From IMG/VR virus record IMGVR_UViG_3300038416_000116, positions 1 through 54,333 of that record: DNA of 54,333 nt. One strand, 5' to 3'. Below, piece by piece: positions 18,878 through 54,333 of this stretch (the stretch's first letter is position 1; every line of letters starts with the position of its first letter). The notes below the pieces were generated by a model. That model had not been told where the DNA came from, did not search any database, and saw only the letters and a program-made list of their open reading frames with translations. Origin of the DNA: a virus (lineage: Duplodnaviria; Caudoviricetes). Position numbers and translations under genes: made by a program.

Positions 18878-19375
18878 ATGGATTTAAAATCATTTTACAA
18901 AACCAACAAACAAAAGTTAATCTACGACCTAAAAGATATCCCTGTCGACATTCTTAGATTTCGTAAATCTCATCGGAGACTTACTTCCATCGAAAGGATG
19001 GTATCAGCCTTTCTACAAGATTGCGTCCGTTACGAAATTATACAAGGGTGCTCTACCCAAGAAATCATTAAAATAGGGAAGACAGGAAATTTCATTATAG
19101 TTGATTTTTATATTAAAGAACCTTCTCTGGTTATTGAAGTAGATGGTCCTGAACATAACGTGATGCGCGATGAAAAAAGAGACAAGGCTCTTTTCAAGTT
19201 GTTCGGAATAAAAGTTATTCGCGTGACAAATAAAGATGTGGAAGAAAATAATAAAAAGACGCGAGAATTTTTACTCAGAGAAATTTTATCTGCAAAAGAC
19301 TTTTCCTCGAGACAAATTGCATCAGCTATTAAAAAATATTGGATTACTAAAGATAGCGAGCGAAATTCTCTATGA
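18878..19375 (+). CDS. DUF559/Vsr-like endonuclease
   Basis: IVDFY...LVIEVDGPEH...RDEKRD...GIKVIRVTN. Confidence 0.75.
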   Translation: MDLKSFYKTNKQKLIYDLKDIPVDILRFRKSHRRLTSIERMVSAFLQDCVRYEIIQGCSTQEIIKIGKTGNFIIVDFYIKEPSLVIEVDGPEHNVMRDEKRDKALFKLFGIKVIRVTNKDVEENNKKTREFLLREILSAKDFSSRQIASAIKKYWITKDSERNSL

Positions 19376-19563
19376 GTTATTCAGCAGCAGATCCTCATGA
19401 GGAAAAACTTTGTTGTGTGGTACAATCCATTGGGAAACTTTATGGAAAAAATATTTGCAAACAATGTTTAAAAAATATTATTAATAAAAAAGGAGTTAAT
19501 GAAAATACATTCCCAGATATTTTAGCATTACTAAACGCATTCACGCTACATGGTAAAACTTAA
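19372..19563 (+). CDS. LCC-family Cys-rich microprotein
   Basis: KLCCVVQ...CKQC. Confidence 0.55.
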   Translation: MSYSAADPHEEKLCCVVQSIGKLYGKNICKQCLKNIINKKGVNENTFPDILALLNAFTLHGKT

Positions 19564-19870
19564 AAAAGATAGCGCTCAAAAATTATTAGATGGTGTATGC
19601 CATTTAACAGGTCATAGACTTTTTCCACAGAAAGATGTTTGTGAAAGATGTCGTAGGCCCCTGATATACTATGCTATTAGTCTCAATAATAACTATGTAA
19701 AGACAGAAGCACAGGTGCTTAAGACATCAAAATTAATTATTGAATTAAATGTATACCAAGGAGACAGAGTAGAGATAACTGCTCTATCTCGACGAGGCAC
19801 GAAGTACCGTAAATTCCATAAAAAACTTAAAATAAGAAAGCCTCGTCGTACTCTAGTCTTTAAGTTTTAG
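19550..19870 (+). CDS. Hypothetical Zn-binding basic protein
   Basis: CHLTGH...CERC. Confidence 0.5.
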   Translation: MVKLKKDSAQKLLDGVCHLTGHRLFPQKDVCERCRRPLIYYAISLNNNYVKTEAQVLKTSKLIIELNVYQGDRVEITALSRRGTKYRKFHKKLKIRKPRRTLVFKF

Positions 19871-19943
19871 GCACCATTATCAAGAACAACTTATAGGTTT
19901 ATTTATTAAATAATCCATGAAATGTTCTTAGTGTATTATAAAA

Positions 19944-20279
19944 GTGATTAATAAATTTCGAGATATTGTAGTTCATCGTATTACCCAATCTGACTATATA
20001 GCCCCTCTTTGCTGCGTCCTCAATAAAATGGACGTCTATCCTGAAGGATTTATTTGTGGGGAACATCTAGGGGAAATGTACGAGACGTTCGAAAATCAAG
20101 AATCATACTTCAAACATTGGGATCTTACAACATGGTTAAGCGATCCTTTTAATAAATTAGGTGAACCATGTCCGACCTCTGCTGCGTCCTCAATCCCTCC
20201 AATAAATGCTTCTCCTGTAAGCAGCCCGTCTGCGACTTCCATTACTGGGCAGAAGAAGGACACTTCCTCTGGGAAATAA
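19944..20279 (+). CDS. LCC-family protein
   Basis: PLCCVLNK...CGEH. Confidence 0.5.
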   Translation: MINKFRDIVVHRITQSDYIAPLCCVLNKMDVYPEGFICGEHLGEMYETFENQESYFKHWDLTTWLSDPFNKLGEPCPTSAASSIPPINASPVSSPSATSITGQKKDTSSGK

Positions 20280-20362
20280 CCTGGAGTGCTACCAAACTGA
20301 AGTGTCTCAAAACAAACGAAAGCTGTTACACTACAGTTAACTCGTATTTACTATACGAATAA
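20168..20362 (+). CDS. LCC-family microprotein
   Basis: DLCCVLNP...CFSC...CDFH. Confidence 0.65.
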   Translation: MSDLCCVLNPSNKCFSCKQPVCDFHYWAEEGHFLWEITWSATKLKCLKTNESCYTTVNSYLLYE

Positions 20363-20405
20363 CCTGATTAGCTGTATAAATTAATATCATTGTAAGGAGT
20401 ATATA

Positions 20406-22175
20406 ATGTTCGTCCCCGAAAATTTTTCTCTCGAAATTTTTAAGAAGCGTTACGCGTTCACTGAAGAAGAGACATGGGTAGAAGCTTGTAGCAGAGTCGC
20501 CCGTCAAATGAGTTTGGCGGAAGTACCTGAAAAACAAAAAGCTTACTATGATAAATTTTTAGAAGTGCTACAAGCTAACTTGTTTGTACCGGGGGGAAGA
20601 ATTTGGTATAACTCGGGGAGAAATAGCCCTCAACTTCTTAATTGTTTTGTGCTAGATCCTAACAAAGATTCTAAAGAAGGGTGGGGTAAGTCAGCCTACA
20701 ACATGATAGTAACTTCTATGACCGGAGGAGGTTGTGGAGATGACTTTTCAGATATTCGTCCTAAAGGGGCGGCTATTGAAGGACAAAAGGGCGTAGCCCC
20801 TGGTTCTGTAGAGCTTATGAGACTCATTGACGGATGTGCTAAGCCCGTTAAAGCAGGGGGTCAACGAAGAGTTGCTTTAATGTTTAGTCTCGATCTTGAT
20901 CACCCTGATGTAGAAGAATTTTTAAATGCTAAATTAGTTAAGGGGGAACTTACTCACGCAAATGTATCTGTTCGTAGTAAGAGGACAAAAGAATTTATTA
21001 AAGCTGTTAAGAATGATGGTGACTGGGATCTTAGTTGGAAAGGTAAATATAAAAAGACTGTAAAGGCTAAAGAAATTTGGCAAACTATTGTACGTAATGC
21101 TTATAACTCTGCAGAACCAGGCTTCTTAAATTGGGAGTTGGTTGAAAGTGAGAGTAACATTAGCTACATTGAGCCCTTAACTACAACTAACCCTTGTGGA
21201 GAGATTGCTTTATCCGCTTACGATTGTTGCTGCTTAGGACACATAGTTCTCCCTAGATTTGTTTCTAATGGCGAAGTAGACTGGTCAGCTATAGGTAATA
21301 CCATTAGAACGTCCGTAAGATTTTTAGATAATGTTTTAACAGTTAATCATTATCCCTTAAATGAAATGAAAACTAAATCACATAATCTACGACGGATTGG
21401 TTTAGGTACTACAGGATTAGCCGACATGTTAGCTACTCTAGGCTACAAGTACGGCTCTAAAGAAGGGAATCAATTCGTTGATAAACTTTTTAGATTTATT
21501 TCTAAAGCTGCCTACGAAGCGTCTATTATGTTAGCTGTCGAAAAAGGGCCATTTCCTATGTGTATCCCTTCCAAACATGTGGAATCAGGCTTCATGAAAA
21601 GAATGCCTGAGAAAATTAAATCTCTAGTTCTTGAGCAAGGCATTCGTAACTGCGCCATCTTAACACAAGCTCCTACAGGAACAGTTTCTATTCTATCAGG
21701 GAACTGCTCTAGTGGAATTGAACCAATGTTTGCTCCTGCGTACGAAAGACGTTATTGGGATGGAGACTCAAGAAAAATGGAATTAGTTTTTCATCCCTTA
21801 TTCGAACAATTTATGGCTGAAGGTAAAAGCGTAGATCATTTTGTAGGATCTAGAGACATTTCTGTAGAAAATCATATGGAAGTTCAAAAGATTATCCAGA
21901 AGCATGTCGACAACGCTGTATCAAAAACAATCAACATCCCTGAAGATTATCCTATGGAAGATGTTGAAAAGTTGTGGCTGCAATATCTTCCCTTCTTAAA
22001 AGGTACTACATTTTATAGAGAGAATACGAGAGGATATATTGGAGAAGGAGGAGTTGTTGAGGAGCCTCCATTAAAAGCTATTTCATTAAAAGAGGCTAAG
22101 GCAAGATTTGCAGAGAAGCATTCTACTGAAAATAAAACTGTAAATGATTGCCCTAAAGGCGTTTGTGAAATTTAA
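20406..22175 (+). CDS. nrdJ: Adenosylcobalamin-dependent (class II) ribonucleotide reductase
   Basis: PGGRI, LLNCFV, AEPG, TNPCGEI, RRIGLG, APTGTVS, SSGIEP, VSKTIN, C-terminal CPKGVC; no beta subunit nearby. Confidence 0.88.
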   Translation: MFVPENFSLEIFKKRYAFTEEETWVEACSRVARQMSLAEVPEKQKAYYDKFLEVLQANLFVPGGRIWYNSGRNSPQLLNCFVLDPNKDSKEGWGKSAYNMIVTSMTGGGCGDDFSDIRPKGAAIEGQKGVAPGSVELMRLIDGCAKPVKAGGQRRVALMFSLDLDHPDVEEFLNAKLVKGELTHANVSVRSKRTKEFIKAVKNDGDWDLSWKGKYKKTVKAKEIWQTIVRNAYNSAEPGFLNWELVESESNISYIEPLTTTNPCGEIALSAYDCCCLGHIVLPRFVSNGEVDWSAIGNTIRTSVRFLDNVLTVNHYPLNEMKTKSHNLRRIGLGTTGLADMLATLGYKYGSKEGNQFVDKLFRFISKAAYEASIMLAVEKGPFPMCIPSKHVESGFMKRMPEKIKSLVLEQGIRNCAILTQAPTGTVSILSGNCSSGIEPMFAPAYERRYWDGDSRKMELVFHPLFEQFMAEGKSVDHFVGSRDISVENHMEVQKIIQKHVDNAVSKTINIPEDYPMEDVEKLWLQYLPFLKGTTFYRENTRGYIGEGGVVEEPPLKAISLKEAKARFAEKHSTENKTVNDCPKGVCEI

Positions 22176-22359
22176 ATCATTTAAAGTACCCTGTTGCGAC
22201 GCTAAGCCTTTCGCCAAATGTAACGTTTGTAATAAAATTGTTTGTAAACGTTGTATGCGAAAGGAGCACATGAAGATGGAGCACGATCAGCAAATTTGTA
22301 CTGTTAGAAATTTTGTCGCGGGATGGGATCCTGTTATACTTCCAGATGAGCGAGATTAA
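22165..22359 (+). CDS. LCC-like (PCC variant) microprotein
   Basis: VPCCDAKP...CNVC...CKRC. Confidence 0.5.
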   Translation: MKFKSFKVPCCDAKPFAKCNVCNKIVCKRCMRKEHMKMEHDQQICTVRNFVAGWDPVILPDERD

Positions 22360-22576
22360 ACTTTGTTGTCTAATAGATCCCATGAGTTTAGAAACAGGGA
22401 TTATGAAATTATTTGATATCGAAAAATTCGGAAGGCCTACTATTTGTAAAAAATGCTACGACGACTTGATTGACGGAATCCCTGAAGCTATAAGAGGCAC
22501 TAGCACAAAAGGTGTATGGGAAGCGATTATTGAACATGTACATTTTAAAATTAAGCAAGAGCATTTACAAAAATGA
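22346..22576 (+). CDS. LCC-family microprotein
   Basis: KLCCLIDP...CKKC. Confidence 0.6.
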   Translation: MSEIKLCCLIDPMSLETGIMKLFDIEKFGRPTICKKCYDDLIDGIPEAIRGTSTKGVWEAIIEHVHFKIKQEHLQK

Positions 22577-22785
22577 CTGAAACTACTACATTTAATTTGT
22601 GCTGTGCTCTTAACGCAGCTACAGAATGTGTCTTTTGTAGAGCAAGATTTTGTAGCATATGTAGATACGACCCTAATCATTCAATAGAAGCTTTTGTTAC
22701 TCTTCCCTATAAAACTAGGGCTAAGGTTCAGGTAAGATGTAAAAATACAGATAGACTATGTATGCTAGTACCTTTAATGAGATGA
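22573..22785 (+). CDS. LCC-family microprotein
   Basis: NLCCALNA...CVFC...CSIC. Confidence 0.65.
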   Translation: MTETTTFNLCCALNAATECVFCRARFCSICRYDPNHSIEAFVTLPYKTRAKVQVRCKNTDRLCMLVPLMR

Positions 22786-23018
22786 TTAGACTTTGTTGTA
22801 CCTTAGATAGTAGAATTTCTTGTACCTCTTGTAATGAAGTATGGTGCTCCACATGCTGGAAATCGCTAGGAGTATTAGATCATAAGCCCTCTGTAACTAG
22901 GGGACAAGATATGAGTCATACGGACACCTGGCATTGTAATATTTCAAATGAATATGTATGCTTTGATTTTAAATCGCAAGACGAGGTAATATTTAGAGTT
23001 TGTCCCCACAGATCTTAA
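22782..23018 (+). CDS. LCC-family microprotein
   Basis: RLCCTLDS...CTSC...CSTC. Confidence 0.65.
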   Translation: MIRLCCTLDSRISCTSCNEVWCSTCWKSLGVLDHKPSVTRGQDMSHTDTWHCNISNEYVCFDFKSQDEVIFRVCPHRS

Positions 23019-23039: not shown

Positions 23040-23288
23040 ATGGCTCGAATTCATCACCCTTCTAGTCTATGCTGTCTTCTAAATCCCCATGGTAGATGTT
23101 CTGCCTGCACGCTCAAACTATGTCAGGACTGCTTTTCAGATCACCTCGAAAAGAACGATTGCGAAGTACAATTAAAATTTAGTAGTAAGCACGACGAGGG
23201 TCCTTATACTTTTCATACCTCTATGAAATGTTCTCTTCTCGGAAAGCCCGCCATCTACGTCGAAGTAGATACTGATTTAAATCTATAA
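23040..23288 (+). CDS. LCC-family microprotein
   Basis: SLCCLLNP...CSAC...CQDC. Confidence 0.65.
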   Translation: MARIHHPSSLCCLLNPHGRCSACTLKLCQDCFSDHLEKNDCEVQLKFSSKHDEGPYTFHTSMKCSLLGKPAIYVEVDTDLNL

Positions 23289-23509
23289 TGGATCCTAAAC
23301 TTTGTTGTATGCTCCATGCATTATTCATGTGTGATGCATGTGGAGAAAAATGGTGTTCAGTCCATTATAAAGAATTTGATGATCTACACCCTGCAATTAT
23401 GTACTATGAAGGAGTAATCTGGTCTGTGGCGTGTAAAAAAACACATATTAGGGTAGAGCTTCAAGAAAATAATGGATTAGCCGGTGAAGGGCACTACGTA
23501 ATTCCATGA
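23288..23509 (+). CDS. LCC-family microprotein
   Basis: KLCCMLHA...CDAC...CSVH. Confidence 0.65.
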   Translation: MDPKLCCMLHALFMCDACGEKWCSVHYKEFDDLHPAIMYYEGVIWSVACKKTHIRVELQENNGLAGEGHYVIP

Positions 23510-23691
23510 GTAATCTATGTTGTGTACTAAATCCTTATAAATGTAATGCATGTAACACTTTCTTAACATTAAATGGGAAAATTCAAGAAGGTTCTCTTTG
23601 CAGTGCACATTATGTACCTGTACAAGGTACTATGTGTGAACAACATTATTACAAATCTTTAAGAAGAGCTTTTCGAAGATCTAAAAAATGA
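23506..23691 (+). CDS. LCC-family microprotein
   Basis: NLCCVLNP..CNAC. Confidence 0.65.
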   Translation: MSNLCCVLNPYKCNACNTFLTLNGKIQEGSLCSAHYVPVQGTMCEQHYYKSLRRAFRRSKK

Positions 23692-23861
23692 ACAATCTCT
23701 GCTGTGTCCTAGATCCATGGTTAATATGTAAAAATTGTGATTGGAGATCTTGTTATAAATGTAGTTATGCAGACGTAAAAGATATGACCACTTCTATGAA
23801 AACACATAAAATCAAATGTGTTAAACCTGAAATAGTAATGAATGTGATGTATAATGGATAA
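23688..23861 (+). CDS. LCC-family microprotein (below ORF-track cutoff)
   Basis: MNNLCCVLDPWLICKNCDWRSCYKC. Confidence 0.65.
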   Translation: MNNLCCVLDPWLICKNCDWRSCYKCSYADVKDMTTSMKTHKIKCVKPEIVMNVMYNG

Positions 23862-24087
23862 TCTTTGTTGCGTCTTAGATAAAGTATACCAATGTACGGC
23901 TTGTGACAGAGTGTTTTGTCAAAAATGTTTTGAGATCTCCGACCATACGTGGAAGTCAGGACCTTCAATAAAAGATTTTAGTTATCTCACTCACAGATGG
24001 TGGAGATGTATTCAAGCTCATACTAACGTAGCACCTAGAACTTCTATTCCTACTAAACCTCTAATACTAGAGCCTATAGATGACTAA
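23854..24087 (+). CDS. LCC-family microprotein
   Basis: NLCCVLDK...CTAC...CQKC. Confidence 0.65.
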   Translation: MDNLCCVLDKVYQCTACDRVFCQKCFEISDHTWKSGPSIKDFSYLTHRWWRCIQAHTNVAPRTSIPTKPLILEPIDD

Positions 24088-24295
24088 ACTTTGCTGTATC
24101 TTAAATAAGGCAATTCATTCTAACTGGAAAGGAGATGAACAATTTTATTGTATTAATTGTGCTACAGATCTTCTTACAGAAGAATACGGCGACGATTTTA
24201 GACGAAAACATAAAAACAGTGAGCTAGGTGATCGACTAAGAAAAGATTTTTCATTCTTTCATCCGGTTCAAGATTGTTCAAAGGCATGTTCATGA
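24080..24295 (+). CDS. LCC-family microprotein
   Basis: KLCCILNK...CINC. Confidence 0.6.
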   Translation: MTKLCCILNKAIHSNWKGDEQFYCINCATDLLTEEYGDDFRRKHKNSELGDRLRKDFSFFHPVQDCSKACS

Positions 24296-24489
24296 TTGAT
24301 TGTAAAGGGACGCTTATCGAAAAATGCGATATAGCAACTTATTCCCTTTGCTGTGTTCTAAATCCCCACTGGATTTGTGACGTATGTGATCACAGAGAAT
24401 GTCTATTGCACGTAGGCCAAAAAAATAATGTTTGGTACACTTACGCAAAAAAATATTATTGTTATAGCTGTTATCAAAATTTACTATGA
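24292..24489 (+). CDS. LCC-family microprotein
   Basis: SLCCVLNP...CDVC...CLLH...CYSC. Confidence 0.6.
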   Translation: MIDCKGTLIEKCDIATYSLCCVLNPHWICDVCDHRECLLHVGQKNNVWYTYAKKYYCYSCYQNLL

Positions 24490-24665
24490 GTGAAACTTCT
24501 GTCGCCATAGCTGAATGTCTACCCTGTTTATTAAAACCTCGAAAGGTTTGTCATCGATGTAAAAAGAAATATTGCCTCTATCATTTTACGACGGACAACG
24601 GATCCATTGTGAGAACAAAAGGTTATAACAATTGGGTTTGTCATAAATGTACACATCCAAAATAA
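24486..24665 (+). CDS. CLxCL-variant microprotein (below cutoff)
   Basis: ECLPCLLKP...CHRC...CLYH...CHKC. Confidence 0.6.
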   Translation: MSETSVAIAECLPCLLKPRKVCHRCKKKYCLYHFTTDNGSIVRTKGYNNWVCHKCTHPK

Positions 24666-24667: not shown

Positions 24668-24889
24668 ATGAAATTACTTTGTTGTATGTTAAAAGCTTTC
24701 GCTAAATGTTCTTTTTGTAATGAACAATGGTGTGCATCTCACTGGTTACCAAATCCTCATGATCATCGTGCTGGAGGAGAATTTGAAACAAGTTGGATAT
24801 GTCCTAAGTATAATAAATCTCTTACCTGGAAACTACGAGTCGCAAATCCTGGCATCTTAATTGACGTCAATGACAAAGAAGCCTGCTGA
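24668..24889 (+). CDS. LCC-family microprotein
   Basis: LLCCMLKA...CSFC...CASH. Confidence 0.65.
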   Translation: MKLLCCMLKAFAKCSFCNEQWCASHWLPNPHDHRAGGEFETSWICPKYNKSLTWKLRVANPGILIDVNDKEAC

Positions 24890-25112
24890 AGAAGGTGACG
24901 TAACCAAATTTAAAGAACAACTCAAGAGAGTTGAATTCATACCTAGACCTTCTTTATGTTGTGTTTTAAACTCTTGGCTTAAATGTAAAAACTGTACTTG
25001 GACACTATGTGAGGAGTGTTTGAATTTAGGACGTCCAAAAGATATGTATCATTACGCAGCATATTTGTCACATGAAATTTATGGATGCAAAGAACATTTC
25101 CAACTCGATTAG
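24870..25112 (+). CDS. LCC-family microprotein
   Basis: SLCCVLNS...CKNC...CEEC. Confidence 0.6.
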   Translation: MTKKPAEEGDVTKFKEQLKRVEFIPRPSLCCVLNSWLKCKNCTWTLCEECLNLGRPKDMYHYAAYLSHEIYGCKEHFQLD

Positions 25113-25338
25113 GCCTATAATTGGTACCATGGCGACCGCCGCGGCCTTACCAAAAACGCGCGATTGTCGCCTTTGCTGCTTACTCTCTCCGGAACATAAA
25201 TGTGATACCTGTCTCATGCAAGTTTGTAAAGTATGCTGGAAAGATCCTGATATAAATCCTGGAGTAACTTATTTTGTATTTGAAAAGGAAGGTAAGGTAT
25301 CTTATTGCTCTAACTGCAACCCTAAAAAGAGTTTCTAA
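25072..25338 (+). CDS. LCC-family microprotein
   Basis: RLCCLLSP...CDTC...CKVC...CSNC; start uncertain. Confidence 0.6.
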   Translation: MKFMDAKNISNSIRPIIGTMATAAALPKTRDCRLCCLLSPEHKCDTCLMQVCKVCWKDPDINPGVTYFVFEKEGKVSYCSNCNPKKSF

Positions 25339-25357: not shown

Positions 25358-25540
25358 ATGAAAGTTAAAAGATTATGTTGTGTTCTCAATCCTGCCAATC
25401 ACTGCAGCCAATGTATGGATCAAGTTTGTAATGAGTGCTACTGGATTATGGGTAAGACCCAAGTGATGTCTAAAATGGATTCTGATGGTGTACATATTTG
25501 GGAACAACGTTACTTATGTGATGACTGCCATGGATCCTAA
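25358..25540 (+). CDS. LCC-family microprotein
   Basis: RLCCVLNP...CSQC...CNEC...CDDC. Confidence 0.65.
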   Translation: MKVKRLCCVLNPANHCSQCMDQVCNECYWIMGKTQVMSKMDSDGVHIWEQRYLCDDCHGS

Positions 25541-25919: not shown

Positions 25920-26168
25920 ATGAAACCTAAACTGTGCTGTCTTATATCGCCCGAATGGGTATGTGATACATGTAAATTCCAGACATGCAACGTATGCTGG
26001 TCGATCGACTATCCTGATAAGGCCGCAAACACCTATACAACTTATCCAGGTAAAACTTTTTGTAATGAGTGTTATCCTAAAAATATGGTTTTTAAGACCT
26101 CTACATATATAATCGGATCGATGCAAGAGATATATCTTCGCAGCGTACAAGCAACAGCCACAGAATAA
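25920..26168 (+). CDS. LCC-family microprotein
   Basis: KLCCLISP...CDTC...CNVC...CNEC. Confidence 0.65.
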   Translation: MKPKLCCLISPEWVCDTCKFQTCNVCWSIDYPDKAANTYTTYPGKTFCNECYPKNMVFKTSTYIIGSMQEIYLRSVQATATE

Positions 26169-30087: not shown

Positions 30088-30240
30088 ATGTGTTGTATCC
30101 TAGATCCACATTGGGTATGGGAAGAAACAGGTGAAGGCCCTTTGTGCGAAGCTTGTTCGATAGTATATTGGAAGTCGGGAACTCATGGTGAATCCATGCT
30201 ACCTCGACCTCGCACTACGTCGTCAGAGAATAGGAGATAA
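30088..30240 (+). CDS. LCC-family microprotein (below cutoff)
   Basis: MCCILDPHW...LCEAC. Confidence 0.45.
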   Translation: MCCILDPHWVWEETGEGPLCEACSIVYWKSGTHGESMLPRPRTTSSENRR

Positions 30241-46509: not shown

Positions 46510-46703
46510 ATCCTACTATCATTTGTCATGGATGTGATAAGTATTGGTGTGAGAAATGTAATCCCTCAAACAACCCTGAATGGAACGATCCTAAAGGACA
46601 TAAGTGTCTTGGGAAGAATTGGATGTGTCCTGCTGGAGGATTTGTCTGGCTGCATAAAACGCGGGGCGATGGCATCTCACATCTAGAGCGTTATGTCGAA
46701 TAA
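46458..46703 (+). CDS. LCC-family microprotein (FCC variant)
   Basis: SFCCRMNP...CHGC...CEKC. Confidence 0.55.
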   Translation: MLKRKIVQVLGSFCCRMNPTIICHGCDKYWCEKCNPSNNPEWNDPKGHKCLGKNWMCPAGGFVWLHKTRGDGISHLERYVE

Positions 46704-46863
46704 ACTTTGCTGTGTCTTAAATACCTATCTTAAATGTTCTACATGTGATTGGGTTCTTTGTATGGCTTGCAGATCAATAGAATCTGTAAATTGTTATGCG
46801 CTACACAGAAAACAACTTGGATGCAAAGGTCATACTATATTAGTTAACGTCTATGGAAAATAA
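46693..46863 (+). CDS. LCC-family microprotein (below cutoff)
   Basis: MSNKLCCVLNT...CSTC...CMAC. Confidence 0.6.
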   Translation: MSNKLCCVLNTYLKCSTCDWVLCMACRSIESVNCYALHRKQLGCKGHTILVNVYGK

Positions 46864-47020
46864 AGAGAACCTAGCCTGCTTAATTAAGGGTCACGAAGAG
46901 ATAGCAGGAACTTCAAATAACGTTACGTCGCGTTGTAAGTATTGCGGCAGAGAGATTGAGTGCAGAGCAATACATGGCGGCGGGGATAAGGATTGTATAT
47001 GGCAACTCTATGGCGAATGA
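46853..47020 (+). CDS. NLACL..GH-family microprotein (below cutoff)
   Basis: ENLACLIKGH...CKYC. Confidence 0.6.
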   Translation: MENKENLACLIKGHEEIAGTSNNVTSRCKYCGREIECRAIHGGGDKDCIWQLYGE

Positions 47021-47216
47021 GAACCTAGCGTGCCTGTTAAATGGACACAAACCCACAGGTGTAACCCTTAATACAAGGACGACTTGCTGCTACTGTCACG
47101 AGCCGCTTTACTATGTGGGTGATATATTTTGGGACGAGCAATACTGTTGGAAAACTAAAGAAGAGATGGACAAAACAAATGATAGACCAACCGGATTCGA
47201 TCCAGATTATCCATAA
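47010..47216 (+). CDS. NLACL..GH-family microprotein
   Basis: ENLACLLNGH...CCYC. Confidence 0.6.
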   Translation: MANENLACLLNGHKPTGVTLNTRTTCCYCHEPLYYVGDIFWDEQYCWKTKEEMDKTNDRPTGFDPDYP

Positions 47217-47490
47217 CGACTTATGTTGTGAGGTGTCGCCTTTCTTGTGCTGCTACGCGTGTGGTGCTAAGAAATGTGCAGATCATTACTACCGATTACA
47301 GGAACACTTAGCAGACACACACCTTAAGGTACTTCAAACCGATGATCACTACGTGACGCACTGCACGATCACAAATACTCTTTGCTGTCAAGTTACGCCG
47401 GGAAGACTAGACTTTGTTCAGAAGTGCACTCATGGAAAAAATCCAAATGGATCAACATCTGTCATATCGAAAGCTAGTAATGCCGGGTGA
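47179..47490 (+). CDS. LCC-family protein with two LCC motifs
   Basis: DLCCEVSP...CYAC...CADH...TLCCQVTP. Confidence 0.55.
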   Translation: MIDQPDSIQIIHNDLCCEVSPFLCCYACGAKKCADHYYRLQEHLADTHLKVLQTDDHYVTHCTITNTLCCQVTPGRLDFVQKCTHGKNPNGSTSVISKASNAG

Positions 47491-47916: not shown

Positions 47917-48129
47917 ATGAGCGCTAAGCTTTGTTGTATCCTTAGCCCACGAGACTATTGCACATACTGCGAACAGCCTATGTGCGATGACTGTGGAAGA
48001 ATACGCGAACTTAAAAAGAAAGAGGCGTACAACTGGCATAAACTAGCTCCAGGATATAGTTCTTGTACCCCTCGAGATAGAAATTTTGTATTTGATGGAC
48101 ACTATTACGGCGGCAAGCCTGTAGTATGA
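47917..48129 (+). CDS. LCC-family microprotein
   Basis: KLCCILSP...CTYC...CDDC. Confidence 0.65.
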   Translation: MSAKLCCILSPRDYCTYCEQPMCDDCGRIRELKKKEAYNWHKLAPGYSSCTPRDRNFVFDGHYYGGKPVV

Positions 48130-48299
48130 GAAAGCGTTGCACTCGTCTTTGCTGTGTTGTTAACCCTTTAGTTATGTGTGTCCATTGTAAAGAAAAACTT
48201 TGTCAGACGTGCGTCTGGAATACGGAATGCTTTCACAAGCTAGCTGAGGTAGGTCAAGATGGAAAACCAAGACACGCCTTTAGGATCTTCGACAACTAA
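48126..48299 (+). CDS. LCC-family microprotein (below cutoff)
   Basis: RLCCVVNP...CVHC...CQTC. Confidence 0.55.
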   Translation: MRKRCTRLCCVVNPLVMCVHCKEKLCQTCVWNTECFHKLAEVGQDGKPRHAFRIFDN

Positions 48300-48525
48300 A
48301 CTTAAGTTGTGTTGCATCCTTAATGGTACAACGTATATGCCTGAGCTATGCAATTGCGGCTTCAGGGCTTGTGACGAGTGTATAGCGGTGGCGCAGAGAG
48401 CCGGCGATGGTTGGTACATTTCAAAATACTTTGATGGCCTAACAACTCTAGCAGATCTTCACTACGAGTATTCAAATAAGAAGTGCCCTAGATTTCACGT
48501 AGAGAAAAAATTAGATGGTGAATAA
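48259..48525 (+). CDS. LCC-family microprotein
   Basis: KLCCILNG...CNCGFRACDEC...ADLH. Confidence 0.65.
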   Translation: MENQDTPLGSSTTKLKLCCILNGTTYMPELCNCGFRACDECIAVAQRAGDGWYISKYFDGLTTLADLHYEYSNKKCPRFHVEKKLDGE

Positions 48526-48730
48526 TAAACTTTGTTGTCTTCTAAACCCTAGCTACAAATGTTATTTGTGCAACTGGTTAAGGTGCAAAGACTGTTGGGA
48601 TGGGCTCGAACAAGGCTCGCACTATACAATGAGGGTCGGGCAAGAAGTAGATCTTTACGATGTCAAATATTTTAAGCGTAGACATAAAAAGGAAGGACGT
48701 ATATGTTGTCTGGAAGGAAAAACTCTATGA
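48515..48730 (+). CDS. LCC-family microprotein
   Basis: KLCCLLNP...CYLC...CKDC. Confidence 0.65.
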   Translation: MVNNKLCCLLNPSYKCYLCNWLRCKDCWDGLEQGSHYTMRVGQEVDLYDVKYFKRRHKKEGRICCLEGKTL

Positions 48731-49043: not shown

Positions 49044-49331
49044 ATGGATTCAGTCGAAGAAAATATGGCGTGGATGCGTCTAGATTTAGAAAGAGGGCTG
49101 CTCGTAGAGACACACAATGAGCTCTGCTGTGAACTCAACCCTAGAATCTATTGCAAAGGTTGTGGTAAGAAATGGTGTGAAGAACATGATACACGCAGAT
49201 GGTCTGATGAGGACTTCGATCACCAGACTCTCGGAGGGAATTTTTATAAATGTCCTATAGCCGATAAGGTAAAGAATACCTACGATATGGGACCTCACCC
49301 AGCCATACTTATACCTCAGACACTAAAGTAG
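49044..49331 (+). CDS. LCC-family microprotein
   Basis: ELCCELNP...CKGC...CEEH. Confidence 0.65.
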   Translation: MDSVEENMAWMRLDLERGLLVETHNELCCELNPRIYCKGCGKKWCEEHDTRRWSDEDFDHQTLGGNFYKCPIADKVKNTYDMGPHPAILIPQTLK

Positions 49332-50691: not shown

Positions 50692-51195
50692 GTGGCTGCC
50701 GAGACTCGTGACAAAGACGGGCTCATCCTTATGGAGTATCCTTTTGAGACAGCTATTACTCTAGATAAGAAGTGCTGGGTAGATATCGCTCAGATGCTTC
50801 TTAAACAAGAGAATCTCAAAGGAATCAACATTGAGCTTCAACCAGGTAAATGGTATCAATCTAAAAGAAGTCGGGGTCCTTACCTAGGTAAACTGGTCGA
50901 CTTCGTGTTTGGTCCTGAGATTATATATCTTTATGGATCCCACGTAGCGTACTGGAAGTACAAGAAGAAGGTGCATGAAGTTATACATATCGCGGTTGAT
51001 AGAGAAGACAAAGATATTCTAAGTACTTTGCTTCACGAGATCGCTCATGCACATCACATAGGTGATGATCATGGTAAGAAGTGGGAAGCAGAGTATCTTC
51101 GTCTAATGGACGAATACTATGTTTCCAGTTCGGCAGGACAATTGTACGAGACGCTAGTAGATCTGTACGAACCATCTTATGCAAGTACAAAATAG
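50692..51195 (+). CDS. SprT-like zinc metalloprotease
   Basis: TLLHEIAH...DHGKKW. Confidence 0.7.
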   Translation: MAAETRDKDGLILMEYPFETAITLDKKCWVDIAQMLLKQENLKGINIELQPGKWYQSKRSRGPYLGKLVDFVFGPEIIYLYGSHVAYWKYKKKVHEVIHIAVDREDKDILSTLLHEIAHAHHIGDDHGKKWEAEYLRLMDEYYVSSSAGQLYETLVDLYEPSYASTK

Positions 51196-51457
51196 ACTCT
51201 GTTGCATAATTAATTCCTTTGGATACTGCTACTACTGCGATGAGCAATGGTGTCGACCTTGTTGGAACGTCGTAGTAAATGGTGGGAATGAATGGCTGGG
51301 AAGTAAATGTCCTGTGGCAAATTCTCTTAACAGAAGCATCTCTTATGGTAGGAGAGGAGGACATTGTGATTGGGCTACAGGAGTTGACATGCCTAGAGAT
51401 AATGTTAAGAAGTTCAACGCGGCCATAATTGATCTAAAGAAACTAATGGAACCATAG
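51179..51457 (+). CDS. LCC-family microprotein
   Basis: RLCCIINS...CYYC...CRPC...RGGH (similar to 41258). Confidence 0.65.
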   Translation: MQVQNRLCCIINSFGYCYYCDEQWCRPCWNVVVNGGNEWLGSKCPVANSLNRSISYGRRGGHCDWATGVDMPRDNVKKFNAAIIDLKKLMEP

Positions 51458-51756
51458 TGTCTAAAAATCTTAAACTATGTTGCCTCTTATCAAGACATCC
51501 CGTCGCAAGGTATGCCTTAGATAACTACGACATGAGACATTCTGATTGGTGTACGTGCGGATTTGGACTATGTGATACGTGCGCACAAGCTATATCAAAA
51601 GGTAGCAAACCTTCTAGGCTTTGGCCTAAAGATAACACATCTGGACACGTAGGAGGATACTTATCCTACGTCGACGAACACTACCTCTACAATCGAGAGT
51701 GTCCTTGGACCAAAGCATTCGTTAAACAAGAAGGCGAGCCTAACTTAAATGGATAA
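51457..51756 (+). CDS. LCC-family microprotein
   Basis: KLCCLLSR...CTCGFGLCDTC. Confidence 0.65.
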   Translation: MSKNLKLCCLLSRHPVARYALDNYDMRHSDWCTCGFGLCDTCAQAISKGSKPSRLWPKDNTSGHVGGYLSYVDEHYLYNRECPWTKAFVKQEGEPNLNG

Positions 51757-51970
51757 TAATCTTTGTTGCGTCTTAAATCCTAAGCTGAAGTGCTTCGATT
51801 GTAGAGCACAACTGTGTACTAATTGTAGTTGGGCAGGCAAGTTAAATACAAGAACGCATCTCAGAGTAGCAGGGATTTATGTTTTGTGTCGGAAGTGTTT
51901 AGATAAAGCAGAAGGATTTGAAGTAGACGAATTCATACTAGTCTCAACGTGGGAGGGAGATTTCCAATGA
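51749..51970 (+). CDS. LCC-family microprotein
   Basis: NLCCVLNP...CFDC...CTNC...CRKC. Confidence 0.65.
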   Translation: MDNNLCCVLNPKLKCFDCRAQLCTNCSWAGKLNTRTHLRVAGIYVLCRKCLDKAEGFEVDEFILVSTWEGDFQ

Positions 51971-52481: not shown

Positions 52482-52757
52482 ATGAACAAATTGTGTTGTG
52501 CCATCAATGGTACTTCCTCTTGCGCCACGTGTGCTAAGCCCTTATGTGAAAAGCATACGCTAGGAAGAGGCAGTCATTATGGATACAATCACAAGGTACA
52601 AAGGTGTCTACAGTGTCATAGAAAATTCGTTCAATTTCATCGAACAGGGAAAGCAGGTGTCTCCTTTAAAGCCTGGCTTTCCCAGATTTCAAGACGTCGA
52701 AAGAAGCAAGGCAAGGTAGCTATGCCTCGGCCTCAAAGAGAGTGGTTTAGTTTTTAA
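52482..52757 (+). CDS. LCC-family microprotein
   Basis: KLCCAING...CATC...CEKH...CLQC. Confidence 0.65.
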   Translation: MNKLCCAINGTSSCATCAKPLCEKHTLGRGSHYGYNHKVQRCLQCHRKFVQFHRTGKAGVSFKAWLSQISRRRKKQGKVAMPRPQREWFSF

Positions 52758-52837: not shown

Positions 52838-53146
52838 ATGCGACTCGTTCCCTCCAACGAAGCCGCCGGAGTTTCTTTATTTATGAAACATATCACTGAG
52901 AACAAATTTACGGGCAACTCTTTATGTTGCCTTCTTAATCCATTAGCATCGTGCACTAAATGTAATTGGACAATTTGTACCAAATGTTGGGATGCATACT
53001 CTGAAGTAGCACCCCCTCCTTTAGATGATGCTTTTAGTTCTTGTAGCATTGATGCAGTGCATAACGCTTGCATGAAGAGAAAGTGCTACATGAAAAGAGA
53101 TTGCCATAGAGGGGAAGACTTCAAAAGAACGGATTATGAAGACTGA
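52838..53146 (+). CDS. LCC-family microprotein
   Basis: SLCCLLNP...CTKC...CTKC; start uncertain. Confidence 0.6.
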   Translation: MRLVPSNEAAGVSLFMKHITENKFTGNSLCCLLNPLASCTKCNWTICTKCWDAYSEVAPPPLDDAFSSCSIDAVHNACMKRKCYMKRDCHRGEDFKRTDYED

Positions 53147-53351: not shown

Positions 53352-53361
53352 GGAGATAATT

Positions 53362-53553
53362 ATGTCATGTAACGATGGCGGCGGATGCGGTAGCTGTGAA
53401 GACTGTCCGGAGAAGCAAGAAGCAAAGAAACAGATGGCTTTATGGAAGAGTATCTTTACAAAGGCGCTCCAGGCAGATGGTGGAGAAGGACGTCTCCTTT
53501 CTCCAGAAGAGGAAGCGCTAGTAAAGAAGACGCTTGAGGGCTTTCCAGAGTAA
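53362..53553 (+). CDS. Small protein with N-terminal Cys cluster
   Basis: MSCNDGGGCGSCEDCP; AAGGAG SD. Confidence 0.55.
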   Translation: MSCNDGGGCGSCEDCPEKQEAKKQMALWKSIFTKALQADGGEGRLLSPEEEALVKKTLEGFPE

Positions 53554-53729
53554 TTATGATACGACTACATCTGCATAGACTTAACTTGTGGACATCGGGG
53601 GTGGAGCTAGGGATATCCATCATGTCCCTAGTAGACAAGCGCTATAGCATGTCAGCAGTATGTTTCTTCGTATCTATAATTCTTTATTGCCTCTACCACA
53701 TAACAGACGAAAAATTGTACGGTTTCTAA

Positions 53730-54002
53730 ATGGCTAACCTTTGTTGTGTCCTAAGTCCAATCGTACACTGTAAGGCTTGTGGAATCAAATGGTGTGCTTC
53801 CTGTTGGACAGCAGCGTGCAAGCCTAGCAATACGTATGGAATATTCTTGAATAGAATCCATGACAAAGATATAGACTCGCACGCAAAGAGCCCTAGAGTA
53901 TGTAGTCTTACGAAGAGAATCGTTGGTGTCATAGAGAATCGCTATACTCCTTGGGAGACACGTGAAGGTAAAGTCGGACTAACCTTTGGGCCTATACCGT
54001 AA
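53730..54002 (+). CDS. LCC-family microprotein
   Basis: NLCCVLSP...CKAC...CASC. Confidence 0.65.
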   Translation: MANLCCVLSPIVHCKACGIKWCASCWTAACKPSNTYGIFLNRIHDKDIDSHAKSPRVCSLTKRIVGVIENRYTPWETREGKVGLTFGPIP

Positions 54003-54015
54003 GGAGAAAGAATCT

Positions 54016-54240
54016 ATGGGTAATTGGTACTTCATAGTAGGGCTTATGTTCGCTGGAGCTACGGGATATATTCTAGATAAAACTCTCCCTGAAGAGTTCC
54101 AAGTTCTCACTGTAGTATGCAGTTGGGGCATGATAGCTTTATGGGGCGTCGTATTAGGATTAGCTCTGCTAGCCTTACCAGTGGTCATCGGTGTCTACGT
54201 AGGCAAGCTTCTTTTCACCACATGGAAGGAGCTAACGTGA
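54016..54240 (+). CDS. Small multi-pass membrane protein
   Basis: Hydrophobic, AAGGAG SD. Confidence 0.55.
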   Translation: MGNWYFIVGLMFAGATGYILDKTLPEEFQVLTVVCSWGMIALWGVVLGLALLALPVVIGVYVGKLLFTTWKELT

Positions 54241-54333
54241 CTGAAAATTGTCTTCCATGTCTATTAAGACAAGGGCATTCATACTGTGTTCATTGTGAAG
54301 AACCTATATGCGACGTATGTGTAACTAAAATGG
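54237..54333 (+). CDS. CLxCL-variant microprotein (runs off window end)
   Basis: ENCLPCLLRQGH..CVHC...CDVC. Confidence 0.55.
   Translation, partial: MTENCLPCLLRQGHSYCVHCEEPICDVCVTKM

Follow-up and report, generated by a model that had tools for sequence, protein, structure and literature searches.

The closest precedent for the locus described here is in Bacillus phage G, where Iyer et al. (2021; PMC7824862) describe a Zn-ribbon expansion of about 35 copies; as here, it is a lineage-specific expansion of small zinc proteins in a jumbo phage. Two other systems are informative. The Opia viruses of Asgard archaea are described as encoding small, Cys-rich, double-zinc proteins in a variable region of the genome (PMC11529989), and Kaur et al. 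(2020; PMC7159879) describe ternary MoxR-vWA conflict systems of bacteria that contain effector-associated domains and FGS-domain effectors, the FGE-sulfatase (FGS) domain being presented there as a ligand-binding "neutralizing" module. We analyzed a 54,333-bp stretch of DNA (the window, below) that is a fragment of an uncultured peat-soil phage with a parent genome of roughly 200 kb, and it contains 68 small ORFs of a single Cys-rich family.

The gene family and its relatives

All 68 family ORFs lie on the + strand between 19.4 and 54.3 kb (Table 1) and occupy 15,381 nt, or 44% of positions 19372-54333. They comprise 53 LCC, eight NL[GA]CL[IV][KN]GH, four xCC ([FMP]CC) and three CLxC (CL[AP]C) subtypes. 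The string LCC is encoded 58 times in the + frames and eight times, by unrelated sequences, in the - frames; in 54 + strand ORFs of more than 20 aa it falls a few residues past the start codon, and 40 of these fit the canonical pattern LCC-x6-9-CxxC-x3-6-Cxx[CH], which occurs 40 times on the + strand, never on the - strand, and not once among 100 shuffles of the window. These numbers agree with the initial annotation, which had proposed about 70 members, about 57 of them with the motif. The co-orientation and two clusters that it reported are also borne out (22.1-26.2 and 37.6-54.3 kb, and others dispersed over 19.4-20.4, 30.1 and 34.7-36.1 kb), as is its ATGA/TAATG packing: 12 of the 67 junctions between successive members are 4-nt ATGA overlaps, three are 1-nt overlaps, and 35 fall within -31 to +9. 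The proteins are 39-239 aa long (median 73 aa). A Shine-Dalgarno-like motif precedes 17 of the 68 genes, whereas among the phage's larger genes 16 of 21 have one (Fisher p 5e-5). An assembly artifact is excluded, as contigs from four further public runs contain the array at an identity of at least 99%.

Copy number per genome was checked in a complete relative, G002 (210,348 bp; MCP 78% and RNR 81% identical to those of the window phage), and is about 70 (56 profile matches, 70 regex matches). The family is also present on two further viral contigs; no copy was found in 50,697 phage records or in 185,579 prokaryote species, each represented by one genome. Its carriers form a clade of peat and wetland phages with genomes of roughly 200 kb, and the closest isolate, judged by the major capsid protein, is Bacillus phage G (29% identity). 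The genes sit in a strand-opposed accessory arm, which in G002 also carries RNA-repair genes, with PNKP, a ligase, RlaP and a CCA-adding-type enzyme, and 37 tRNAs. A match to a characterized family was sought, but every Pfam, PHROG and NCBIfam model stays below its cut-off and no source names the family, which was thus previously unnamed. The earlier statement that no phage paralog family of this size and form had been described needs qualifying in view of the phage G precedent.

At the L, C, C and P positions of the motif all synonymous codons are used (six for Leu and four for Pro, with TGT/TGC at 32/22 and 39/15 for the two Cys); thus, selection on the motif acts at the protein level, as had been claimed. 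The tails were first seen as hypervariable; in the sense of ongoing diversification this is not supported. The nearest paralogs are at most 46% identical (over at least 50 aa), the best match of 47 of 54 members lies outside the window and a relative carries about 70 copies, so that an old and maintained repertoire is well supported by sequence comparison. Tails differ between paralogs and are conserved between orthologs: nine ortholog-like pairs are 48-63% identical across most of their length, with tail identity (179/390, 46%) near that of the non-ligand core (91/178, 51%). Between the window and G002, other accessory-arm genes have diverged to about the same extent (30-43%), so a special arms-race rate is not demonstrated.

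Table 1. Family ORFs and associated features of the window
Position	Strand	Feature	Length (aa)	Remarks
19372..19563	+	LCC variant (CC + one CxxC)	63
19944..20279	+	LCC variant (CC + CxxH)	111	GTG start
20168..20362	+	LCC canonical	64
22144..22359	+	PCC-type	71	canonical Cys spacing
22346..22576	+	LCC variant	76
22573..22785	+	LCC canonical	70
22782..23018	+	LCC canonical	78
23040..23288	+	LCC canonical	82
23288..23509	+	LCC canonical	73
23506..23691	+	LCC variant	61
23688..23861	+	LCC canonical	57	ortholog-like P0103 (50% over 56 aa)
23854..24087	+	LCC canonical	77	ortholog-like P0124 (61% over 75 aa)
24080..24295	+	LCC variant	71
24292..24489	+	LCC canonical	65
24486..24665	+	CLPC-type	59	first pair C-x2-C
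24668..24889	+	LCC canonical	73	family's top zf-AN1 score, 20 bits (cut-off 27.9)
24870..25112	+	LCC canonical	80
25129..25338	+	LCC canonical	69
25358..25540	+	LCC canonical	60	ortholog-like P0058
25530..25721	+	LCC canonical	63	ortholog-like P0060
25702..25899	+	LCC canonical	65
25920..26168	+	LCC canonical	82
30088..30240	+	MCC-type, minimal	50	ends 7 nt 5' of MoxR-like gene
30247..31359	+	MoxR-like AAA_5 ATPase		homolog on all three other family-bearing contigs
32626..33810	+	DUF2201 metallopeptidase-like + VWA		homolog on all three other family-bearing contigs
34666..35049	+	LCC minimal finger (CC + CxxH)	127	100-aa tail
35562..35756	+	LCC canonical	64
35965..36141	+	LCC variant	58
37604..37768	+	NLGC..GH-type	54
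37770..38027	+	NLGC..GH-type	85	GTG start
38024..38254	+	LCC canonical	76	TTG start
38789..38959	+	NLAC..GH-type	56
38952..39128	+	LCC canonical	58
39412..39621	+	LCC canonical	69
39623..39796	+	NLGC..GH-type	57
40350..40508	+	NLGC..GH-type	52
40618..40737	+	PCC-type, short	39	weakest call
41028..41258	+	CLAC-type	76	first pair C-x2-C
41258..41527	+	LCC canonical	89
41976..41991	+	16-nt direct repeat		first copy
41987..42706	+	LCC start (CC + WCxxH only) fused to FGE-sulfatase domain	239	PF03781, 1.9e-43
42795..42836	+	LCC 5' remnant		no start codon; 14-codon frame to stop
42822..42837	+	16-nt direct repeat		second copy
42833..43063	+	LCC canonical	76
43060..43272	+	LCC canonical	70	P0013, structure-modeled
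43269..43442	+	LCC canonical	57
43432..43689	+	LCC canonical	85	ortholog-like P0130
43686..43844	+	NLGC..GH-type	52
43829..44062	+	LCC canonical	77
44046..44261	+	LCC canonical	71
44264..44476	+	LCC variant	70
44879..45124	+	LCC variant	81
45121..45438	+	LCC	105	30-aa insert ahead of CxxC-x4-CxxC
45653..45892	+	LCC canonical	79
45895..46128	+	LCCVLN start, no downstream finger Cys	77	doubtful/decayed; outside the 68
46309..46509	+	LCC canonical	66
46458..46703	+	FCC-type		canonical spacing; start uncertain (overlaps preceding gene)
46693..46863	+	LCC canonical	56
46853..47020	+	NLAC..GH-type	55
47010..47216	+	NLAC..GH-type	68
47179..47490	+	LCC canonical	103	second LCC downstream
47917..48129	+	LCC canonical	70	top six-frame zf-B_box score, 16.9 bits (cut-off 24.1)
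48126..48299	+	LCC canonical	57
48259..48525	+	LCC variant	88
48515..48730	+	LCC canonical	71
49074..49331	+	LCC canonical	85	ortholog-like P0099
49377..50678	+	classical AAA+ ATPase (CDC48/FtsH/PAN-like core)		inside array 2
50692..51195	+	SprT-like metallopeptidase, weak		adjoins AAA+ gene
51179..51457	+	LCC canonical	92
51457..51756	+	LCC variant	99	GTG start
51749..51970	+	LCC canonical	73
52482..52757	+	LCC canonical	91
52883..53146	+	LCC canonical	87	ortholog-like P0083
53136..53351	+	LCC canonical	71	ortholog-like P0072
53730..54002	+	LCC canonical	90	ortholog-like P0050 (59% over 90 aa)
54222..54333	+	CLPC-type		incomplete at contig end

The zinc domain and its nearest folds

The domain begins three to five residues past the initiator Met and spans about 45 residues with an eight-ligand pattern, CC-x7-CxxC-x4-Cxx[C/H]…H…C, in which the His lies about 5-12 residues past ligand 6 and is followed by Cys. 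Among 103 aligned members, L, C, C, C, C and C are invariant and another Cys is present in at least 90%; the exact LCC-x7-CxxC-x4-Cxx[CH] spacing is found in 163 of 186 distinct small members, and 134 of those 163 have a His no more than 20 residues past the sixth ligand. The initial description of complete divergence after the motif was thus overstated. Eight ligands are enough for two Zn ions, and the domain is probably binuclear. The first pair may be CC, C-L-[AP]-C or C...GH, and because LCC is replaced by the other two in variants we infer that it is the first ligand pair of the zinc domain and not a detachable tag. Three members (those starting at 41987, 34666 and 19944, the first being the FGE fusion) retain only CC and the third pair, W-C-x-x-H, which hints at cross-brace ligation; pair 1 would then act with pair 3 and pair 2 with pair 4, the interleaving seen in binuclear treble-clef fingers such as B-box type 1.

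The proposed constant-plus-variable design survives in part. In the fusion member an FGE-sulfatase/C-type-lectin-like binding domain takes the place of the tail behind an LCC start, but LCC appears to be part of the zinc domain, with no separate tag. The fusion gene is bracketed by a 16-nt direct repeat (two matches vs. 0 expected).

The suggested resemblance to B-box/treble-clef fingers held up. The family profile matches the multi-B-box proteins P0001 (5e-24, 34 stretches), P0147 and P0004. The structure models are of moderate quality (pLDDT 73.7 and 69.6). When a domain-only model was searched against 48,161 PDB chains, five matched at Z of 2 or more, three of them named B-boxes, namely COL2 (Z 2.9, rmsd 2.5, 36 aa), PML B-box1 (Z 2.7) and TRIM28 B-box1 (Z 2.1), and a further comparison of the model with PML B-box1 gave Z 2.9 and rmsd 2.4 over 37 of 50 residues. 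Pfam zf-B_box (PF00643), however, scores no higher than 17.4 bits against a cut-off of 24.1, and an hhalign comparison of the family with 62 B-box repeats gives P 0.024. This weak but convergent evidence, below the usual thresholds and with structural Z under 3, points to B-box type 1 as the nearest known fold.

Both domains have about 40-45 residues and eight Cys/His ligands, and the spacing of ligands 3-6, C-x2-C-x4-C-x2-[C/H], is identical. Unlike the B-box, the family has an adjacent CC as its first pair (C-x2-C in three members only) and H...C with longer, variable spacing as ligands 7-8, and its members are stand-alone microproteins of a tailed phage rather than segments of RING-B-box-coiled-coil proteins. 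B-boxes are known from eukaryotes, including TRIM/PML and plant CONSTANS-like proteins, and are mainly protein-interaction and self-association modules, which fits a binder role for the family. The AN1-type zinc finger (PF01428) shares the ligand 3-6 spacing and gives the top single Pfam score (20 bits), but this falls short of the 27.9-bit cut-off, the AN1 first pair and last ligands are unlike those of the family, and no AN1 structure is among the matches listed for the domain model. Eukaryotic AN1 proteins are adaptors of AAA+ unfoldases, a parallel to the adaptor alternative considered below.

Proposed role and alternatives

The reading we favor, at about an even chance, is that the family is an old and maintained set of binders, built on a zinc scaffold, that serves host takeover or counter-defense. 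The zinc scaffold would be the constant part of each paralog, the ligand 6-7-8 loops and C-terminal tail would form a paralog-specific binding surface, and the set would act during takeover and counter-defense as specific binders or inhibitors of macromolecules of the host or of rival elements. These targets would most likely be proteins rather than nucleic acids, since the pI is not uniformly basic and one member carries an FGE-sulfatase domain.

Alternatively, as the initial annotation proposed, though we think it unlikely, the zinc module could dock on one phage machine while the tail recruits a host protein for remodeling or degradation. Candidate machines are the MoxR-like ATPase with the VWA/metallopeptidase, or the CDC48/FtsH-like AAA+ protein with the SprT-like peptidase. 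The MoxR-like and DUF2201/VWA genes are the only non-family module common to all four family-bearing contigs, and a family gene lies directly 5' of the MoxR-like gene in the window (30088-30240), in G002 (68490-68624) and in contig G001 (match 3019-3138 adjoining the gene at 1770-2855). However, with family genes so dense such adjacency is expected by chance, and the MoxR-vWA-peptidase pair of other jumbo phages has been proposed to act as a chaperone in virion assembly (Iyer et al. 2021; PMC7824862). The AAA+ gene and the weak SprT-like gene that follows it lie within array 2, but no SprT-like counterpart was found in the complete G002, and the AAA+ proteins of the two phages share the ATPase core only, at 30%. 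Within the start, polar residues (N at -2, K/N at -1, then N and P) are more strongly conserved than a role as ligand pair would by itself require, and the FGE fusion shows that a foreign binding domain can be attached to the start. Against this, no LCC-like domain was found in the window's MoxR-like, VWA and AAA+ proteins, so there is no indication of a homotypic adaptor of the effector-associated type described by Kaur et al. (2020).

There is a similarly small chance that the fingers are DNA- or RNA-binding and make up a large repertoire of phage-specific transcription or translation factors or nucleoid proteins, the role suggested for the phage G Zn-ribbons (Iyer et al. 2021, PMC7824862). 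The pI (4.7 to 10.5, median 7.8) is above 8 in 27 of 54 members, but it is below 7 in 22. Control of late genes or translation by small phage zinc proteins is known (P2 Ogr, Mu Com), and one member has a weak score to the Mu Com Zn-ribbon model (0.0023, below the cut-off). Yet 68 regulators would far outnumber the operons of a 200-kb genome, and the nearest folds, B-boxes, are mainly protein-interaction modules.

It is very improbable that the N-terminus is a capsid-targeting sequence like that of the T4 internal proteins, and that the proteins are injected with the DNA as a first-wave counter-defense. The start is short and constant, precedes diverse bodies and has a fixed place at the very N-terminus (in 84 of 144 small matches L is residue 4 or 5), but its two Cys vary together with the other finger ligands, it is not followed by a conserved cleavage motif, the structural module is in the opposite arm from these genes, and about 70 cargo species would be unprecedented. 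Modified or secreted peptides, made, as at multi-precursor RiPP loci, from precursors that join Cys-rich cores to a short conserved leader, might be suspected from the many small Cys-rich ORFs with a common start and differing remainder and from the phiEco32-like COOH-NH2 ligase and amidotransferase of G002, but can hardly be credited when just 3-5 residues precede the first Cys and run into a fixed zinc-ligand pattern, signal peptides are absent, whole 60-90 aa lengths are conserved among orthologs, and Pfam scans of the window's larger ORFs found no radical-SAM, lanthipeptide or cyclodehydratase-type enzyme.

Comparison with described systems

The MoxR-vWA conflict systems, as presented by Kaur et al. 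(2020), resemble the LCC family in having many paralogs per genome with a short N-terminal module on varied bodies, an FGS domain with all other domains N-terminal to it, and MoxR-vWA genes nearby. They are, however, cellular defense systems whose adaptor domains are also found on the core component, whereas the LCC family is carried by a phage whose MoxR-like and VWA proteins lack an LCC domain, and most family members have no effector domain.

The Opia proteins, according to their description (PMC11529989), likewise form runs of small, Cys-rich, two-zinc proteins in a variable region of wetland-soil viruses. Each genome has up to six; at up to 197 aa they are larger than LCC members, and their authors describe them as beta-beta-alpha-metal nucleases of PacI/HNH-like type. 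The LCC family gave no PacI or HNH match.

The LCC profile has no match in the 497,513-bp Bacillus phage G genome. Phage G gp32 has a mid-protein CPxC...CPxxC ribbon with four ligands, in contrast to the eight of the LCC family, and the two align over only 14 columns (P 0.066); judged by these sequences, the phage G Zn-ribbon is a different family. The phage described here has about double the copies in a genome less than half as large, and its 68 genes are roughly twice the largest zinc-finger expansion that we found described for a phage.

The LCC family in the window and in related phages

The string LCC occurs 58 times in plus-strand frames of the window, with eight unrelated occurrences in minus-strand frames, and in 54 plus-strand ORFs it lies shortly after the start codon. 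Forty of these 54 ORFs fit the pattern LCC-x6-9-CxxC-x3-6-Cxx[CH], which is found 40 times on the plus strand, never on the minus strand and in none of 100 shuffles of the window. ORFs with altered starts were picked up with a profile of the first 32 residues (eight with NL[GA]CL[IV][KN]GH, three with CL[AP]C and four with F, M or P for L), and the family as a whole comprises 68 ORFs that occupy 15,381 nt, or 44% of positions 19372-54333. Consecutive members share an ATGA overlap at 12 of their 67 junctions and a 1-nt overlap at three. All six Leu codons, both Cys codons and all four Pro codons are used at the invariant positions, so conservation acts on the protein. The initial annotation had described about 70 co-oriented members, about 57 of them with the LCC motif, and selection on the protein, and all of this agrees well with our counts. 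The LCC family is a real, translated-looking and zinc-ligand-rich protein family.

The window takes in the entire 54,333-bp viral contig, which has a completeness rating of 27%. A minus-strand structural module that includes tail-fibre-like proteins extends over 1-18,742, and from 18.9 kb onward coding is almost all on the plus strand (see the table). Among isolates, Bacillus phage G is the nearest by capsid protein, although the two proteins share only 29% identity. Near-identical DNA is present in peat and wetland metagenome runs from many studies; 20 runs are listed, none of them an RNA run, and nine of the 20 contain at least half of the sampled words. Contigs from four metagenome runs cover the array at ≥99% identity and are nearly identical to it, with 26 variant rows over 16.9 kb, some of these contributed by foreign FGE-like contigs; the 13 variant sites classified are too few for dN/dS.

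Features of the window
Feature	Position	Strand	Remark
Major head protein	3018-3992	-	
Portal	8827-10449	-	
Large terminase	10855-12450	-	
Family member	19944-20279	+	CC and W-C-x-x-H only
Ribonucleotide reductase	20406-22175	+	class II-like
MoxR-like AAA_5 ATPase	30247-31359	+	
DUF2201 metallopeptidase-like + VWA protein	32626-33810	+	
Family member	34666-35049	+	CC and W-C-x-x-H only
FGE fusion	41987-42706	+	CC and W-C-x-x-H only
LCC remnant	42795-42836	+	start-less, 14 codons
ORF with LCC start	45895-46128	+	lacks finger cysteines; outside the 68
Small ORF, long hydrophobic stretch	48878-49036		between family genes
Classical AAA+ ATPase	49377-50678	+	CDC48/FtsH/PAN-like core, all far under family cut-offs
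SprT-like peptidase	50692-51195	+	weak match
Small ORF, long hydrophobic stretch	51949-52134		between family genes
Small ORF, long hydrophobic stretch	52143-52301		between family genes
Small ORF, long hydrophobic stretch	53556-53729		between family genes
Small ORF, long hydrophobic stretch	53986-54240		between family genes

Several further features lie in and around the two family arrays. Array 1 (22000-26000) has a G+C content of 0.36, compared with 0.42-0.49 across 26-54 kb, and the two arrays may have different histories. At the boundary between this low-G+C array and the next block, about 500 nt (26170-26700) are without a plus-strand gene, and a G-rich stretch within them reads as Gly/Arg/Glu runs in several frames. 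Two winged-helix paralogs are present, at 28784-29083 (HTH_45, 1.8e-5) and 36716-37078, the first of which has three relatives at 24.5-28.6 kb in the complete relative described below. A tRNA-Met gene (37255-37340) lies just ahead of array 2, and a 4HBT-type thioesterase gene (9e-16; 47414-47833) lies within it. The hydrophobic small ORFs between family genes are possibly membrane microproteins.

Degenerate DNA patterns for the family start located three more viral contigs rich in the family, which we call G001, G002 and G003. Profile matches (E ≤ 0.001) number 17 in G001 (27.6 kb) and 17 in G003 (39 kb), in each case all on a single strand. The G002 genome is complete (210,348 bp, with terminal repeats) and has 56 such matches, 54 of them on one strand, or 70 members by regular expression. 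The structural modules of G002 and the window are syntenic, with identities of 78% for the major head protein, 69% for the portal and 58% for the terminase, and the reductases are 81% identical. The G002 portal gene (9611-12406) encodes 931 aa, compared with 540 aa in the window, and contains a LAGLIDADG domain (1.9e-11) that is probably an intein or homing-endonuclease insertion. The G002 family genes lie in a plus-strand arm of about 100 kb together with genes for PNKP, ligase, RlaP, a CCA-adding-type enzyme, a BCS1-like AAA+ protein, SPFH and RuvB, and with 37 tRNA genes (39.1-116.1 kb), 32 of which form one 13-kb block interleaved with family genes. The family is held at about 70 copies per genome in this accessory arm.

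Beyond these contigs, a metagenome scan found at least 118 loci, with canonical members in 25 among the matches listed. One member searched by tblastn had no match at E ≤ 1 among 50,697 isolate phage records. In 185,579 prokaryote species (one genome each), a pattern that catches only members starting N-[NK]-L-C-C-x-x-N-P gave 58 matches, which we take as chance because the Cys pattern is absent from all of them. A word-indexed protein search with the family alignment gave seven matches among 69 candidates, none named and none with a Pfam domain, and the ten clusters that were looked up carried no names. Judging from these searches, only this group of uncultured large phages seems to have the family.

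Family genes differ from their neighbors in their starts. A Shine-Dalgarno-like motif precedes 17 of the 68 (background 0.21) but 16 of 21 larger genes of the same phage, often as TAAGGAG (Fisher p 4.8e-5), and G002 shows the same trend (12 of 50 family genes and 27 of 53 others, p 0.008). Codons 2-3 of family genes are A-rich. The Shine-Dalgarno-poor starts may reflect coupled re-initiation, a different way of initiating translation or an output that is kept low on purpose. In 36.0-54.3 kb neither promoter-like sites (23, with 33.4 expected) nor terminator-like sites (16, with 12.7 expected) stand out.

The zinc domain and its likeness to known fingers

When 103 full-length members, taken from the window and from metagenomes, are aligned, the consensus is M-N-x-L-C-C-x-L-N-P-x3-C-x2-C-x4-C-x2-C-x9-H-x9-C. 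The L and five Cys are invariant, and one more Cys is present in ≥90% of members. The exact spacing LCC-x7-CxxC-x4-Cxx[CH] is present in 163 of 186 distinct small members; their sixth ligand is C in 75% and H in 24%, and in 134 of the 163 a His follows it within 20 residues. The conserved Cys and His positions thus supply eight candidate ligands, enough for two zinc ions, over about 45 residues, more than half of a typical 73-aa member. The picture in the initial annotation, of a constant LCC module that docks or serves as a targeting tag, calls for revision, since LCC looks like the first ligand pair of an eight-ligand domain. This pair is mostly CC, and becomes C-x2-C in CL[AP]C members and C...GH in NLGC members. 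Such plasticity makes sense for a metal site, as far as the sequences go. Three members keep just CC and a third pair W-C-x-x-H (see the table), which hints that pairs 1 and 3 share one zinc, in cross-brace order. Three metagenome proteins of 132-156 aa (P0002, P0003 and P0005) have two LCC fingers in tandem and could occur naturally in this form or result from read-through between neighboring genes.

Every member stays below the cut-offs of Pfam, PHROG and NCBIfam models. When 35 of the 54 members then known were scanned, none passed zf-B_box (PF00643; cut-off 24.1 bits, best 17.4) or zf-AN1 (PF01428; cut-off 27.9 bits, best 19.9-20), and a six-frame scan of the window with PF00643 gave five matches at E ≤ 1, the best at 16.9 bits and none above the cut-off. 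By Pfam's rule, then, the LCC domain is not a B-box member. Other sub-threshold Pfam matches of the 35 members were to ANCHR-like B-box, ZZ, HIT, IBR and FYVE. IBR appears as one weak IBR_1 match (0.013), among language-model neighbors (IBR clusters at scores of 0.92-0.93, leads only) and as HHARI at Z 2.3 with the full-length model. Against PDB sequences the family profile gave weak rows only, rabphilin FYVE (0.011), cellulose-synthase RING (0.019), HERC2 ZZ (0.035) and TRIM5 (0.037).

The type 1 B-box has the consensus C-x2-C-x7-12-C-x2-C-x4-C-x2-[CH]-x3-4-H-x4-9-H, and the spacing of family ligands 3-6 is identical to it in 163 of 186 members. The family differs from it in pair 1, which is CC, with C-x2-C in only 3 of 68, and in ligands 7-8, which are H then C at wider spacing. 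A search of 1.84 billion representative proteins with the family profile gave 251 matches at E ≤ 0.001. Among the best 150 of the 251, 17 are from the window and the rest are mostly proteins of 55-110 aa with the same start (L at residue 4-5 in 84 of 144 small matches), but a few long ones (P0001, P0004 and P0147) are multi-B-box proteins by Pfam (zf-B_box, 1e-19 to 1e-26). When the family was compared by hhalign with 62 B-box repeats cut from multi-B-box proteins, CxxC-x4-CxxC...H aligned in register, though with a P of only 0.024.

A full-length AlphaFold model (pLDDT 73.7) had no Foldseek match at E ≤ 0.001 in the PDB or in BFVD. Its best score in a wide structure search (Z 3.7) was to cobalamin-binding beta domains, which are unrelated; the variable beta-rich tail, as modeled, probably dominated these searches. 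A model of the 45-residue domain alone (pLDDT 69.6) is more informative. Only five of 48,161 PDB chains match it at Z ≥ 2, values that are low in absolute terms: the COL2 tandem B-box (Z 2.9, rmsd 2.5, 36 aa), PML B-box1 (Z 2.7), CYLD residues 789-840 (Z 2.3), which form the B-box-like insert of CYLD, a Toxoplasma conoid protein (Z 2.3) and TRIM28 B-box1 (Z 2.1). The three named B-boxes align at rmsd 2.5-2.7 over 36-37 aa, and a second structure comparison placed PML B1 first (Z 2.9, rmsd 2.4, 37 of 50 residues). Each of these lines is weak, but they agree in suggesting that the LCC domain is most like a type 1 B-box, and the resemblance in Cys spacing remarked upon initially is exact for ligands 3-6 and echoed below threshold by profile and domain model.

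Divergence of the paralogs and possible roles

The closest paralogs within the window are no more than 46% identical over ≥50 aa and usually are not neighbors, and for 47 of 54 members the best match lies outside the window; by these comparisons the paralogs are old. Nine of the 49 members with any outside match have ortholog-like partners, 48-63% identical over most of their length. In these nine pairs the tails are 46% identical (179/390) and the non-ligand core 51% (91/178), and because the two values are so close the tails, initially described as hypervariable, appear to be paralog-specific but maintained. Other accessory-arm genes are 30-43% identical between the window and G002, about as diverged as the family, so an exceptional rate cannot be claimed for it.

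We propose that the LCC proteins would act as specific binders that share one zinc scaffold, a reading to which we give an even chance. It draws on the B-box-like fold, on the lineage-wise conservation of each tail, on a broad pI range (4.7-10.5) that speaks against a nucleic-acid role common to all members, and on a single member with an FGE-sulfatase domain in place of the tail. This domain shares 50-60% identity with homologues from bacteria, some of them with TIR domains, and Kaur et al. (2020, PMC7159879) describe its fold as a module that binds ligands in conflict systems. An exact 16-nt direct repeat (41976-41991 and 42822-42837; two matches in the window, none expected) spans a stop/start junction and brackets the fusion gene and the LCC remnant. 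The arrangement resembles a scar left where a cassette was inserted or duplicated at the conserved 5′ end, and if so would be one way of joining new bodies to the LCC start.

The initial annotation suggested adaptors, in which the conserved finger would dock on a shared partner, and this we consider unlikely. A MoxR-like and DUF2201/VWA module is present on all four family contigs (window 30247-33810; G001 263-2855; G002 68.7-78.3 kb; G003 1-8832), with a family gene just upstream of the MoxR-like gene on three of the four; family genes are, however, dense everywhere. G002 and G003 each have two VWA paralogs, and two family contigs end at this module. The candidate partners are without an LCC domain, the six-frame ORF profile search of the window giving no family match in the frames of the MoxR-like, DUF2201/VWA and AAA+ genes, whereas in MoxR-vWA systems the effector-associated domain is also met on the core vWA or NTPase. 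It also speaks against docking that Iyer et al. (2021, PMC7824862) propose a virion-assembly role for the MoxR-VWA pair in other jumbo phages. The SprT-like gene directly 3′ of the AAA+ gene (49377-51195) makes a pair reminiscent of an ATP-dependent protease split in two; G002 lacks a counterpart of the peptidase. In the fullest form of the adaptor reading, which we rate as slightly more doubtful again, the fingers would be interchangeable substrate adaptors whose N-terminal zinc face plugs into the MoxR-like/VWA-metallopeptidase or the CDC48-like AAA+, while about 70 loops and tails, and the lectin-like FGE domain, would each bind a host protein of their own, to be unfolded, cleaved or sequestered. 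If true, this would be a phage-borne, eukaryote-like targeted protein removal built on B-box/AN1-like fingers, mirroring bacterial MoxR-vWA conflict systems from the attacker's side.

In the window, which covers only about 27% of the genome, Pfam scans of 16 and 31 further ORFs found no RiPP modifying enzyme. T4 IP-type internal proteins are capsid-targeted and carried in virions, with an N-terminal tag cleaved by the prohead protease; the LCC genes lie outside the structural module, and a conserved cleavage motif is absent after their start.

Precedent and significance

The B-box fold is known from eukaryotic TRIM and CONSTANS proteins, and if our reading is right a B-box-like binuclear finger would be placed in tailed phages, which bears on the origin of such fingers. 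On the same reading a soil phage clade devotes roughly 7% of its 200-kb genome to some 70 variants of a single tiny zinc scaffold. Should the LCC proteins be specific binders, they would amount to a library of 55-110 aa binders made by nature, every one conserved within its lineage, and their targets should lead to nodes of host takeover or to defence systems of poorly studied peat bacteria, and the scaffold could be reused as a minimal binding protein. Since Pfam, PHROG and NCBIfam hold no model for it, defining the LCC family would annotate hundreds of metagenomic ORFs.

With subscription journals and preprint supplements outside the scope of our literature search, we found no description of the LCC family or of phage B-box fingers, and no larger single-domain expansion described for a phage. 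The initial statement that no paralog family of this size and form had been described needs qualifying by the Zn-ribbon set of phage G (about 35 copies), which Iyer et al. (2021, PMC7824862) call an unprecedented lineage-specific expansion. The phage G genome (497,513 bp) has no match to the family profile at E ≤ 1, and its Zn-ribbon protein gp32 has a mid-protein four-Cys ribbon that aligns to the LCC alignment over only 14 columns (P 0.066), so that, judged by these comparisons, the two families differ. The LCC family, with roughly double the copies of the phage G set, is a larger case of such expansion, on a different and more eukaryote-like finger.
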